DNA of 64,000 nucleotides, taken from positions 11,036,001-11,100,000 of the forward strand of contig OZ024758.1 of NCBI GenBank assembly GCA_964016885.1, given 5' to 3'. The position numbers and the translations under genes were made by a program. The notes below the pieces were generated by a model. The model was not told the origin of the DNA, did not search any database, and saw only the letters and a program-made list of their open reading frames with translations. Numbering within the stretch: position 1 is the stretch's first letter; every line of letters starts with the position of its first letter. Source of the stretch: Eledone cirrhosa (taxonomy: Eukaryota). This document shows, piece by piece, positions 11,067-57,331 of this stretch.

Positions 11067-11124
11067 ATACCTGATGATGTCGTCGGATTCATACTGAACC
11101 CCGTCACTGAAATGATCATAGTAT
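11067..11124 (+). ncRNA. Type I hammerhead ribozyme in a (TA)n-flanked element (about 10907-11175)
   Basis: AUAC-CUGAUGA-[imperfect long stem II ending UUCA-UAC-UGAA]-GAAA-UGAUCA-UA-GUAU; stem I AUAC/GUAU, palindromic stem/loop III AUGAUCAU. Confidence 0.7.
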
Positions 11125-11224
11125 AATAAACCTTTTAAGGAATTACACCAGTCCAGCCTCCTGTTATTTTATAATATATATATATATATGTATATATGTA
11201 TATGTGTGTGTGTGTGTGTGTAAA

Positions 11225-19356: not shown

Positions 19357-20935
19357 GGGTCTGGTGAGGAGGTGCAGTTTAGTTGTTGATCACTCAACTA
19401 TAAATCCTGTTGTTCTGGGCTACATGGTACCCGTAGCAGGCAGAAGCCTGACATGACCAAACCCTTGTCTGGCGGTGGAGCCGGTTTAGTCACCGACAAT
19501 TCGACCATGAAACAGGTTTTATTGGTTACAAGGTACCCGTAGCAGGCAGAAGCCTGACATGACCAAACCCTTGTCTGGCGGTGGAGCCGGTTTAGTCACC
19601 GACAATTCGACCATGAAACAGGTTTTATTGGTTACAAGGTACCCGTAGCAGGCAGAAGCCTGACATGACCAGACCCTTGTCTGGCGGTGGAGCCGGTTTA
19701 GTCACCGACAATTCGACCATGAAACAGGTTTTATTGGTTACAAGGTACCCGTAGCAGGCAGAAGCCTGACCTGACCAGACCCTTGTCTAGCGGTGGAGCC
19801 GGTTTAGTCACCGACAATTCGACCATGAAACAGGTTTTATTGGTTACAAGGTACCCGTAGCAGGCAGAAGCCTGACATGACCAGACCCTTGTCTGGCGGT
19901 GGAGCCGGTTTAGTCACCGACAATTCGACCATGAAACAGGTTTTATTGGTTACAAGGTACCCGTAGCAGGCAGAAGCCTGACATGACCAGACCCTTGTCT
20001 GGCGGTGGAGCCGGTTTAGTCACCGACAATTCGACCATGAAACAGGTTTTATTGGTTACAAGGTACCCGTAGCAGGCAGAAGCCTGACATGACCAGACCC
20101 TTGTCTGGCGGTGGAGCCGGTTTAGTCACCGACAATTCGACCATGAAACAGGTTTTATTGGTTACAAGGTACCCGTAGCAGGCAGAAGCCTGACATGACC
20201 AGACCCTTGTCTGGCGGTGGAGCCGGTTTAGTCACCGACAATTCGACCATGAAACAGGTTTTATTGGTTACAAGGTACCCGTAGCAGGCAGAAGCCTGAC
20301 ATGACCAGACCCTTGTCTGGCGGTGGAGCCGGTTTAGTCACCGACAATTCGACCATGAAACAGGTTTTATTGGTTACAAGGTACCCGTAGCAGGCAGAAG
20401 CCTGACATGACCAGACCCTTGTCTGGCGGTGGAGCCGGTTTAGTCACCGACAATTCGACCATGAAACAGGTTTTATTGGTTACAAGGTACCCGTAGCAGG
20501 CAGAAGCCTGACATGACCAGACCCTTGTCTGGCGGTGGAGCCGGTTTAGTCACCGACAATTCGACCATGAAACAGGTTTTATTGGTTACAAGGTACCCGT
20601 AGCAGGCAGAAGCCTGACCTGACCAAACCCTTGTCTGGCGGTGGAGCCGGTTTAGTCACCGACAATTCGACCATGAAACAGGTTTTATTGGTTACAAGGT
20701 ACCCGTAGCAGGCAGAAGCCTGACATGACCAGACCCTTGTCTGGCGGTGGAGCCGGTTTAGTCACCGACAATTCGACCATGAAACAGGTTTTATTGGTTA
20801 CAAGGTACCCGTAGCAGGCAGAAGCCTGACATGACCAGAGCAGAGTCTGATGGTGTAGCCTGTTTAGTCACAGACCACTCAACCATGAAGCAGATTGTAT
20901 TGGGCTACATGTTACCTGCAGTAAGCAGAAGCCAT
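19357..20935. repeat. 106-bp tandem array: 13 near-identical units (19426-20803) plus diverged edge units
   Basis: GGTACCCGTAGCAGGCAGAAGCC recurs at 19426, 19532, 19638 ... 20804. Confidence 0.98.
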
Positions 20936-21794: not shown

Positions 21795-21802
<8 letters not shown>

Positions 21803-21982
21803 TGATATTCTACAGGACTAGAACTGTTTCATTCTTTAGAAATCATCAGGAATCTCTGATGATTTCTAAAGAATGAAACAGTTCTAATCCTGTAGAATCT
21901 CATCTATATTAAATATTTTATACTCTGCAATGTATTGAGTACCTTACTTACTGTAATTACCTCCGATTCAACCCGGAATAAC

Positions 21983-21983
<1 letters not shown>
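21795..21983 (+). mobile_element. Family A hammerhead fold-back element flanked by (TA)n
   Basis: 55-bp inverted arms (21795-21849 / 21856-21910) plus a tail; homologous to 30100-30288 and 57198-57378. Confidence 0.85.
21804..21856 (-). ncRNA. Type I hammerhead ribozyme, family A
   Basis: GAGAUUC-CUGAUGA-U-UUC[UAAA]GAA-U-GAA-ACAG[UUCUAGUC]CUGU-A-GAAUAUC; cleavage after GUA; one stem I mismatch. Confidence 0.75.
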
Positions 21984-22025
<42 letters not shown>

Positions 22026-22155
22026 GAAGTTATATTTAATTTGTTGGGATACAACAAGCAAATATTTTTATAACTGATATAAAGCACTCAACAAAATTTT
22101 TGGAGTAAAAATACAATATTTTAACAAATAGAAACTATATTTATAAAACCATATT

Positions 22156-22220
22156 TATTTCATTATACATATTTCAAGGACACCAAAGCAAATTATGGTG
22201 CGCTTTCATCAGATAAAATA
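22156..22220 (-). ncRNA. Type I hammerhead ribozyme, family B (left arm)
   Basis: UAUUUUAU-CUGAUGA-AAGCGCACCA..UGGUGUCCUU-GAAA-UAUGUA-UA-AUGAAAUA. Confidence 0.8.
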
Positions 22221-22338
22221 TAATATAGATCAGTTTTATAAACAAATATTGACATACCCTTAAAAGAATGCGATCATGTCTGTTGGTCGCATTCTTTAAG
22301 GGTATGTCAATATTTGTTTATAAAACTGATCTATATTA

Positions 22339-22403
22339 TATTTTATCTGATGAAAGCGCACCATAATTTAACTTGGTGTCCTTGAAATATGTATAATGAA
22401 ATA
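22339..22403 (+). ncRNA. Type I hammerhead ribozyme, family B (right arm)
   Basis: UAUUUUAU-CUGAUGA-AAGCGCACCA[UAAUUUAACU]UGGUGUCCUU-GAAA-UAUGUA-UA-AUGAAAUA; 8-bp stem I with one G-U pair. Confidence 0.8.
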
Positions 22404-22443
22404 AATATGGTTTTATAAATATAGTTTCCATTTGTTAATATAC

Positions 22444-22486
<43 letters not shown>

Positions 22487-25034: not shown

Positions 25035-25272
25035 TAGAAGGGGTATTTAATTTGTCGGAAATCCGACAAATATAAATATAAATGTTTATAACTGATTTAG
25101 AACACTCAACAGTTTCCTGGAGTAAATATTCAATGATATTAAATACATGGAAACTATATTTATAAAACCATATATCCATATATTTTATATTTATAAAACC
25201 ACTATCCAGAGAATATCGAACTGATAAGGTATGATTTTCCTGGGTATGTCTCTATTTATAAAACAAACTTTG

Positions 25273-28160: not shown

Positions 28161-28384
28161 AAACAAGACAAAACGAAAAACAATTTATTAAAGAAGAAAC
28201 CTATATATATATATACTCCAGTCCTACAAACTGTAGAGTGCTTCTTATCCGATATCTGCATTGCTTTATTGTACTACAATAAAACTCACCTCCTACATAG
28301 AGAGATAGAGAGATAGATAGATAGATAGAGAGATAGATAGTTAGATAGATAGAAAGAGAGAGAGAGAGAGTGAGAGAAAGAGAA

Positions 28385-29189: not shown

Positions 29190-29325
29190 TGCTGAGACGG
29201 AGAAAGAGACCACTAAGCATGGGAGTACTCAATGCATGGGTAGATGCAGAGTGGGTATAGAGATATATAAAATCCCGACCGCGGCGTCAAGCGGTTTCGG
29301 CTTGTGTGGTCCAGCAAGGATTTTA

Positions 29326-29744: not shown

Positions 29745-29785
<41 letters not shown>

Positions 29786-29813
29786 ATCAAAAGATGGTTA
29801 AATGAGTTCCATG

Positions 29814-29862
29814 TATTTTATTATGCGCATTTCAAAAACATGTGTTTTCATCAGATAAAATA
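29814..29862 (-). ncRNA. Minimal type I hammerhead ribozyme
   Basis: UAUUUUAU-CUGAUGA-AAACACAUGUUUUU-GAAA-UGCGCA-UA-AUAAAAUA; perfect 8-bp stem I, palindromic AUGCGCAU stem/loop III. Confidence 0.85.
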
Positions 29863-29888
29863 GGAGGACATGATATGAAGGTTAAAAA

Positions 29889-30102: not shown

Positions 30103-30186
30103 AGTTAGTCCGGGTTGAATCGGAGGTAACCACAGTAAGTAAGGTACTCAATACATAGCAGAGTATAAAAGTTTTAATATAGATGA

Positions 30187-30235
30187 GATTCTACAGGACT
30201 AGAACTGTTTCGTTCTTTAGAAATCATCAGGAATC
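30187..30235 (-). ncRNA. Type I hammerhead ribozyme, family A (fold-back element 30100-30288)
   Basis: GAUUC-CUGAUGA-U-UUC[UAAA]GAA-C-GAA-ACAG[UUCUAGUC]CUGU-A-GAAUC. Confidence 0.8.
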
Positions 30236-30516: not shown

Positions 30517-30711
30517 AACGAAGGAAATGTGGTAAGGAACCAGGTGGACCATAACGCACCAAAGTACTCAATACTTGGGGTAGTAGAGTGGGTGATAGGA
30601 ACCAGTAAGACCCCGACGGCTGAGCTCAAGCCGTTTCGACGGCTAATTCTGGACTAGTCCAGAATTAGCCGTCGAAACGGCTTCAGCTCAGCCGTCGGGG
30701 TCTTACTGGTT

Positions 30712-35081: not shown

Positions 35082-35239
35082 AATGAAGGAAATGTGGTAA
35101 GGAACCAGATGGACCATAACGCACCAGAGTACTCAATACTTAGGGTAGTAGAGTGGGTAATAGGAAAATGTTTGACCCCGACGGCAGAGCTCAAGCAGTT
35201 TCGACGGCTATTTTTGGACTGAAATAGCCGTCGAAACGG
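35082..35239 (-). mobile_element. Family C hammerhead-half fold-back element
   Basis: homologous to 30517-30716; CCGTTTCGACGGCTATTT..AAATAGCCGTCGAAACGG. Confidence 0.8.
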
Positions 35240-41629: not shown

Positions 41630-41775
41630 GAAAAGAGTCAGGACACCGACAGCTGAGCTCCGGCCATTTCGACAGCTAGATCCGAACTAAGATATTACCC
41701 ACTCTACTACTCTAAGTATTGAGTACTCTGGTGTGTTATGGTCCACCTGGTATCTTACCACATTTTCTTTGTTAT
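41627..41775. mobile_element. Family C element with its two parts in opposite orientation (5' inversion)
   Basis: hammerhead-half segment 41630-41690 joined to the reverse-oriented tail ATTACCCACTCTACTAC...ACCACATTTTC. Confidence 0.75.
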
Positions 41776-41820: not shown

Positions 41821-42030
41821 AAATGTGAAGACTAAAATCCAAAGAGGGCTCGATAAGGATAAATATATATCAAATATATAAGAACCCTAGAGCAAATATT
41901 TATTAAAATAACAGATTAAAGTTTAAGCAAAGAATATCTGCTTTCATCCTTAACGGGATCTTCAGAAGATCCATTAATGATGAAAGCAGCGATTCTTTGC
42001 TTGAACTTTAATCTGTTATTTTAATAAATA
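41821..42030 (-). mobile_element. Family D hammerhead fold-back element; its tail recurs inverted at 61363-61408
   Basis: 66-bp inverted arms around GATCTTC-A-GAAGATC; minus strand UU-CUGAAGA-UCC[CGUUAA]GGA-U-GAA-AGCA[GAUAUUCUU]UGCU-U-AAAC; stem I truncated by the inversion. Confidence 0.7.
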
Positions 42031-47107: not shown

Positions 47108-47304
47108 CAGATAGGGTGTGGTAAAAACCAGCTAGACCATAACCCACCAGAGTACTCAATACTTGGGGTAGTAGAGTGGGTAATATGAAAAGATTCGGGA
47201 CACTGACAGCTGAGCTCTGGCCATTTTGACAGCTAGATCCAAACTAAAGCATATCTAGCTGTCAAAACGGTCAGAGCTCAGCTGTCGGAGTCCTGAATCT
47301 TTTC

Positions 47305-50044: not shown

Positions 50045-50232
50045 CAAAGGAATTGTGGTAAGGAACTAAATGGACCATAACGCACCAGAGTACTCAATAC
50101 TTAGGGTAGTAGAGTGGGAAATAGGAAAACGTATGACCCCGACAGCAGAGCTCAAGCCGTTTCGAAGACTATTTCCAGAAATAGCCATCGAAACGGCTTG
50201 AGCTCTGCCGTCGGGTCATACTTTTTCCTATA
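50043..50232 (-). mobile_element. Family C fold-back element
   Basis: homologous to 30517 and 35082; arms around CTATTTC-CA-GAAATAG; CGAAACGGCTTGAGCTCTGCCGTCGGG. Confidence 0.8.
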
Positions 50233-57120: not shown

Positions 57121-57284
57121 AGCCAGAATCAGTTCCCGTCCCACCCTTGCAAGCAGGGAAAAAGCGGACGTAAAATGATGATGATATATATATATATAAG
57201 TTTATCCCGGGTTCAATTGGGGGTAATCACAGTAAGTAAGGTACTCAATACATAGCAGAGTATAAATATTTAATATAGAAATGG

Positions 57285-57331
57285 CTTCTACAGGAGTAGA
57301 ACTGTTTCATTCGGGAGAAATCATCAGGAAG
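57285..57331 (-). ncRNA. Type I hammerhead ribozyme, family A variant (element 57198-57378)
   Basis: CUUC-CUGAUGA-U-UUC[UCCC]GAA-U-GAA-ACAG[UUCUACUC]CUGU-A-GAAG; stem I covaries with the other copies (AUUC/GAAU vs CUUC/GAAG). Confidence 0.75.

Follow-up and report, generated by a model that had tools for sequence, protein, structure and literature searches.

The window is the whole stretch of DNA analysed here, 64,000 nucleotides of the Eledone cirrhosa genome (assembly GCA_964016885.1, contig OZ024758.1, positions 11,036,001 to 11,100,000). It carries copies of four families of elements, A to D, which insert into (TA)n and share a bulged hairpin with the consensus RCUC-[variable stem-loop]-UY-GAGY-RCU, as derived from a side-by-side comparison of five copies (the trailing RCU is usual). 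The UU or UC ahead of GAGY forms a two-base bulge on the 3' side of the hairpin, and the variable part between RCUC and UY-GAGY is a second (upper), covarying stem rather than a plain loop. The initial annotation of this DNA had drawn a hairpin with a simple loop, overlooking the bulge, the upper stem and a second hairpin further downstream. Its five sequences were nevertheless borne out in coordinates and strand, at 21922-21940 (+), 22086-22106 (-), 25104-25123 (-), 41701-41724 (+) and 41848-41893 (-), and, for its spacing of about 30-70 nt between hairpin and (TA)n, the five copies measure 43, 64, 71, 48 and 47 nt, respectively. The features of the window are as follows, where E1 and E2 are the first and second 3' ends at which copies stop:

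21801..21849, minus strand: inverted arm of family A, tail-less, stopping at E1
21856..21983, plus strand: direct arm of family A: a type I hammerhead (core at 21856), then the hairpin, then the tail running to E2 before (TA)n
21922..21940, plus strand: bulged hairpin of family A, the first of the tail, ACUC-UGC-aau-GUA-UU-GAGU
22024..22450: fold-back insertion of family B, tailed arm on the minus strand (hammerhead at 22212) and tail-less arm on the plus strand (hammerhead at 22347)
22086..22106, minus strand: bulged hairpin of family B, ACUC-CAAA-aau-UUUG-UU-GAGU
25104..25123, minus strand: B-like hairpin, with a hammerhead (25281) on the opposite arm only
28215..28239, plus strand: UA-bulge hairpin in a tail-only copy of another family, beginning directly after (TA)n
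29227..29252, minus strand: C-like hairpin with an altered upper stem, UGCAU/AUGCA replacing UACU/AGUA
30146..30164, minus strand: additional family A hairpin, hammerhead at 30230
30566..30589, minus strand: additional family C hairpin
35131..35154, minus strand: additional family C hairpin
41701..41724, plus strand: bulged hairpin of family C, ACUC-UACU-acucua-AGUA-UU-GAGU, with the 3' half of a hammerhead on the inverted arm
41848..41893, minus strand: long hairpin of family D, GCUC-UAGGG...CCUUA-UC-GAGC
47154..47177, minus strand: additional family C hairpin
50092..50115, minus strand: additional family C hairpin
57243..57261, minus strand: additional family A hairpin, hammerhead at 57327

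A covariance model recovered all five cited sites and seven others in the window (E <= 0.11), its training set having held four of the five, with 41848 not among them. In the window and its neighbourhood (264 kb), a strict descriptor of the motif gave 33 matches (2 of them nested duplicates); 20 local dinucleotide shuffles yielded 0-6, and the mirror geometry of the descriptor none. Across the 3.0-Gb assembly, a tight pattern matched 120,461 times against 889 for a reversed control; these are mostly copies of a few families, and thus the number reflects abundance rather than independent origins. An Rfam scan of the window returned nothing relevant among the matches listed, these 150 being miRNA models under their gathering scores, mostly on microsatellites and fold-backs. 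Two more hammerhead-bearing families occur in the window as tail-less copies (11071-11150 and 29760-29870), and their relatives elsewhere have the hairpin (L066 and L143). In addition, a 106-bp unit forms a tandem array of 14.3 copies with 97% matches at 19421-20933.

The hairpin had been placed downstream of a hammerhead; two of the cited copies, 25104 and 41701, have hammerhead sequence on the opposite, inverted arm only. Predicted ribozymes with canonical type I cores are found in families A and B and in a further family, H2. The autonomous masters of family D (e.g., L082) have all three stems around the core CAGAAGA (U4 to A) and form a putative ribozyme, and the CUGAAGA of family D in the window, at 41965 on the minus strand, is a product of the inversion junction. 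No CUGANGA core was found in the window copies of family C, and a canonical core was rejected for this family after a genome-wide search gave 35 heterogeneous matches, none with stem I. A U3-A8 core variant explains this result; it is complete in the master copies only, where it is predicted to fold into a three-way junction, and has been reported for Penelope-like elements of Schistosoma (PMC4209133). Short C copies begin inside loop II of the hammerhead and contain its 3' half only. In the C masters (L288:1335-1440 and others), a TATA-like word and the presumed start of transcription both fall within the long loop II, and the full C ribozyme would consequently be assembled in read-through RNA alone.

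Autonomous carriers of the motif

Rarer copies of families A to D continue into an ORF of the Hydra clade of Penelope-like elements. Family D reads on into the ORF start at locus L040, and a search from this start gave 12,400 first-look candidates, many with open frames of 713 codons. Searches with the tail end plus RCUCY found, as predicted, read-through copies of C (531), A (110) and B (6), the ORFs being intact in A and C and decayed in B. This read-through indicates that the four families are the pLTR/5'-leader ends of autonomous-type elements. The ORFs are about 710-720 aa long, the tandem unit of C is about 3.53 kb and the 3' UTR of D is about 1 kb. Intact, 99% identical C elements form head-to-tail arrays with a period of about 3.53 kb at C1:437200343-437210966 and C1:91476604-91487267 (L318, L319), and at other loci (L290, L291, L292, L294, L297) the ORF start directly abuts the fixed 5' terminus of a different C leader, as template jumps would produce.

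The ORF proteins of A, C and D are 49-54% identical to one another, and those of the second Hydra-type family, H2, are about 39% identical; in H2, a version of the hairpin with a one-base bulge follows the hammerhead. The families had been described as otherwise dissimilar, and the identity among the A, C and D proteins points instead to common descent. RWR and DKT, the latter in place of DKG, are present in the ORFs of A, C, D and H2 (in H2 across a frameshift), and the decayed ORF start of family B has RWR, with DKT not seen. Translations of A, C, D and H2 contain CxCx5C followed by a GIY-YIG-like region, in agreement with the Hydra-clade pattern of a linker and an endonuclease with no CCHH motif; Pfam gave no match for the D protein, so the endonuclease assignment is based on motifs. 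Compared with a Neptune-type ORF from this genome, identity is 22-23% over some 225 aa.

Elements of the Hydra clade, as described in the main text of Craig et al. (2021; PMC8557442), have in common with these families a single ORF with RW(K/R), DKT, CxCx5C and, at its C-terminal end, GIY-YIG, as well as a pLTR with a type I hammerhead, insertion into (TA)n, inverted 5'-truncated copies and an optional tail. The tails are about 60-95 nt here compared with 30-40 bp in that paper, and some elements here reach 3.5 kb, whereas those of the Hydra clade are generally under 3 kb, a size to which ORFs of about 710-720 aa do correspond. The word ‘hairpin’ occurs 0 times in the main text of the same paper (word search; PMC8557442). 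A non-LTR retrozyme, defined by tandem non-coding repeats of 170-400 nt that each bear a type I hammerhead (Cervera and de la Pena, 2020), was also considered as the carrier and rejected, as the copies in the window are dispersed fold-backs and the masters continue into ORFs.

Conservation and covariation of the hairpin

An alignment of 43 relatives led to 77 metagenome and 18 genome-collection contigs, which are presumably host-animal DNA; no relatives were found among the viral contigs searched. The loci L270-L287 are Hydra-type animal retroelement contigs within bacterial genome bins, probably through host contamination. Among 44 foreign loci with an assumed ORF start, 41 had 150 nt upstream, and a strict site was present in 30 of these 41 leaders (11 were without one), compared with 1 in antisense and 28 in 1190 ORF windows. 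The site also follows 28 of 45 foreign hammerheads, 33-54 nt from the cleavage site, while 7 of the others reach a microsatellite first and 10 are followed by neither site nor microsatellite; the misses include several short-loop or UA-bulge variants and some flank. Inspection by eye of published consensuses found the hairpin in Hydra-2_Amil (coral), Hydra-2_Ajap and Hydra-1_Ajap (sea cucumber, the latter with two copies), a near match in Hydra-1_Crog, a weak match in Hydra-1_Amil and no such hairpin in Hydra-1_Obim.

The motif is not a feature of all Penelope-like elements, given that Neptune-type tails open with ACUC-GUG and have no UY-GAGY half. The covariance model gave 8 sites in 12 Neptune-type loci, which came from a GIY-YIG search, and those sites that were matched up sit in nested Hydra-type pieces. 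In three Neptune-type families (L011, L014, L022 and L038; L021 and L027; L029 and L066), the tails open with ACUCGUG a few bases past the first end, and in two of them a small GUGU/ACAC stem is formed. This tail start is possibly a reduced or related signal.

Pairing was examined in an unbiased sample of 664 kb, chosen without regard to the motif, in which every RCUC...UYGAGY site was taken and the upper stem ignored. Among the 38 clusters ending in (TA)n, a complete set of three upper pairs was found in 22, where cross-family shuffles gave 7.7 and 0 of 10,000 of them reached 22; the outer pair in these 38 clusters was A-U in 21 and G-C in 10. Control clusters without (TA)n had three upper pairs in 11 of 73 against 4.1 expected, a signal that is much weaker, though not null. 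In the foreign loci, the first upper pair was kept in 64 of 68 distinct cores (U-A 21, C-G 42, U-G 1) against a shuffle mean of 50 and maximum of 57, and the second and third pairs were kept in 50 and 49 of the 68, compared with 31 and 28 in shuffles. Furthermore, an alignment of 41 rows (A2; 5 window sites selected by eye and 36 foreign sites) had 97.3% of its cells paired and 43 two-sided changes, with 0 of 500 shuffles matching either value; slid controls on it paired at 18-60%, and four pairs showed two-sided changes. The U-A and C-G states at the first upper pair are interspersed across the RT tree, which is a quick tree of the relatives only rather than the result of a finished careful search, and on this tree the change was not one inherited event.

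Three pairs of the lower stem and the trailing RCU are almost invariant, and at upper pair 3 a C-U mismatch is seen in the majority of family D copies. RNAalifold on the gapped A2 alignment, in which gaps misplace several short rows, returned four lower pairs only, three of them invariant. Folding of single copies gave z values of -1.1 to -0.1 for four of the cited five, which is no improvement on shuffled sequence, and -4.2 for one, and the predicted single-sequence folds were often without the bulge. As modelled, the hairpin has little stability of its own and would depend on a protein to hold it. Plain sequence homology without structure would account for this weak folding and for the invariant core letters, the carriers all being related Hydra-type elements; however, it is largely refuted, and hardly credible, in view of compensatory changes at four pairs that are interspersed on the tree while the flanks are unalignable.

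The near-invariant lower pairs and trailing RCU also resemble a sequence-read site, which raises the alternative that the GIY-YIG endonuclease reads RCTC...TYGAGYRCT in DNA, whether duplex or extruded, and cuts integration intermediates back to E1 and E2. Consistent with this, recognition by a Penelope endonuclease depended on the tail, which has itself been attributed to resolution by the endonuclease (both as cited in the text covered of PMC11167929 and PMC8557442). However, duplex DNA would not need covariation of the upper stem, the spacer between the conserved halves is highly variable, and GAGYRCTC is mostly GAGCACT, which is no true palindrome. G-U pairs on the sense strand exceed A-C mismatches by 11 to 4, a modest excess that leans towards a sense single strand. 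Recognition as DNA is therefore considered distinctly unlikely.

Copy ends and the second hairpin

The 3' ends of copies are bimodal, lying either just ahead of the hairpin (E1) or 36-62 nt past it (E2), and only 4 of 240 fall inside it. The stretch from E1 to E2 is the Penelope ‘tail’, and hairpin 1 is at its start. Tail-only insertions that start exactly at the first end were observed at 28215-28295 in the window, L047 and L160 (3 of the 78 sites sampled without bias). In the masters of B, C and D, a second hairpin lies 40-70 nt beyond the first and a few bases after E2. It is clear in C and D and weak in B, where only one upper pair is clear. Its bulge-GAGC half, which was absent from the search patterns, is found at the second site of 10 out of 12 loci in C and of all 6 in B. 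The second site of H2, read by eye, has a long loop and a 1-nt bulge. Family A has RCUC only at this position, with the bulge-GAGY half in 0 of 12 loci, though E2 is sharp. Two relaxed sites are present in 28 of 57 foreign leaders, the second nearly always opening with C-G, and foreign copies that abut TA stop a few bases ahead of hairpin 1 (for example, L209, L232, L237, L274) or of hairpin 2 (L198, L214, L221, L279); rows from comparing L279 with itself were microsatellite noise and were set aside. Cross-pairing of the two hairpins, seen in the lowest-energy fold of one C master, was rejected as not general; upper pairs 2 and 3 were formed within hairpin 1 in 24 and 19 of 28, compared with 10 and 11 across hairpins.

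Measured on natural masters, 225 of 231 ends that abut (TA)n fall within 0-14 nt upstream of the RCUC of site 1 or 2, whereas only 30 of 127 TA dinucleotides are found in those windows. The windows were chosen once the ends were known, and BLAST ends extend into the TA microhomology. Since copies end just 5' of the second site, hairpin 2 lies barely outside the copied DNA. Both hairpins are in the 5' leader, the second some 40-60 nt ahead of the ORF match, where they might serve another function (translation control, folding beside the hammerhead or packaging), the ends being set by UA microhomology or a steric block, and the tails of family A and of Neptune-type elements do combine sharp ends with RCUC in the absence of a bulged hairpin. 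This explanation is very improbable given that the distance from end to RCUC is nearly constant across five families as well as foreign elements, and given that most UA sites, the UA-rich D loop included, are rarely used.

Fold-back insertions combine an E1 arm with an E2 arm in 13 of 17 cases in family A, 17 of 19 in B and 36 of 49 in C; in family D this applies to 14 of 26, with 8 ‘E2/E2’ pairs that include arms continuing into the ORF. Among the fold-backs, 14 of 17 (A), 19 of 19 (B) and 42 of 49 (C) have a junction signature of their own, so that most of them represent separate insertion events, and self-propagating fixed palindromes were mostly rejected on the same ground. The top similarity matches do share one fold-back geometry, but these were chosen by likeness to the query. 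At the other end, the starts of short A copies cluster some 25-30 nt past a TATA-like word, with 31 of 38 matches at reference positions 144-154; the 5' ends of short C copies are placed similarly, and B and D are without one sharp end behind a TATA-like word. This placement suggests that short copies of A and C arose by reverse transcription of the mRNA leader.

A proposed role in internal initiation of reverse transcription

The proposed role of the paired leader hairpins is to bind the RT-endonuclease on the RNA, each probably setting an internal start of reverse transcription a few bases upstream. The nicked (TA)n target strands would pair with the UA just 5' of each hairpin, while a protein, possibly dimeric, would hold both hairpins. 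A cDNA started before hairpin 2 would give the tailed arm and one started before hairpin 1 the tail-less arm, and the tail would be simply the distance from hairpin to hairpin. The short A and C elements would be copies of the mRNA 5' end, reaching from the transcription start to either internal start, and not SINE-like families that propagate themselves. Given that hairpin 2 is missing from E2-ended copies, it would act on the template RNA or donor DNA and not as a fold of the cDNA. The initial annotation had suggested a cis signal for the mobilising RT or for RNA 3' end formation. The former is strengthened by covariation, conservation in distant Hydra-type elements and fixed end spacing, although we infer the binding of RT itself; the latter, in the form given, is not supported, since the masters read through the hairpin into the ORF and copies end upstream of it.

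This arrangement resembles that of the anole Poseidon element PAc, in which RT initiates internally at two sites bounding the tail and for which the hammerhead was dispensable in vitro (Frangieh et al., 2024; PMC11167929). The two systems have in common two internal starts bounding the tail, an AT-rich target and a predicted protein dimer (PMC11167929). However, PAc has its starts within the ORF, in an AC-rich stem-loop, and the text covered names no conserved determinant for them (PMC11167929), whereas the elements here have a conserved, covarying hairpin just 3' of each putative start in a non-coding leader. The same end positions would be accounted for if the hairpin guided RNA cleavage just upstream, by an element protein or host nuclease, followed by 3'-end TPRT from E1 or E2, and RNA-seq read ends do coincide with the start sites in the anole element (PMC11167929). 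This is unlikely, because anole initiation in vitro is internal and independent of the template 3' end (PMC11167929), and leader cleavage would sever the ORF from its own mRNA.

Internal starts set by the hairpins may also be compared with other RT systems. The 3' stem-loops of LINEs and SINEs and the R2 3' UTR are small RNA structures recognised by the RT protein for template choice. In those systems the structure is situated upstream of the start and becomes part of the copy, whereas the hairpin here is downstream of the putative start and paired, a reversed geometry. In telomerase RNA, short helices bound by TERT, the sister RT family (template boundary element, CR4/5, ciliate helix IV) fix internal template use (PMC4993307). 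The likeness to the hairpins here is an analogy only; the template boundary element marks the stop and not the start (PMC4993307).

No description of the hairpin or of its link to the two ends was found in the literature searched, which included the parts covered of PMC8557442, PMC4209133 and PMC7229834 and a sparse coverage of subscription papers and Repbase reports. It is possible that the hairpin has been described elsewhere, in subscription papers, Repbase reports or preprint supplements such as those of the retrozyme preprint 10.64898/2026.07.22.740005. The carrier elements, hammerheads, tail and fold-backs were known already; the hairpin and its pairing with the two ends appear to be new relative to the literature covered.

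The motif bears on how Penelope-like RTs pick internal starts and on why the tail is optional; the single in-vitro study mapped starts and named no conserved signal. The motif offers a candidate signal of 20-45 nt, conserved in distant Hydra-type elements, that predicts both ends, and it may serve as a marker of element boundaries in genomes where such pieces exceed 100,000. Many of the ‘mini-elements’ there are suggested to be by-products of initiation on an mRNA leader. Tentatively, the two halves of an RT-endonuclease dimer could dock on the hairpin pair, each half priming one target strand immediately upstream of its own hairpin, a reading from sequence that we put forward as plausible rather than probable. 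If true, it would explain the tail, the one-tailed fold-backs and the mass of leader-only copies together, and would provide a minimal model of template positioning in a telomerase-sister RT.
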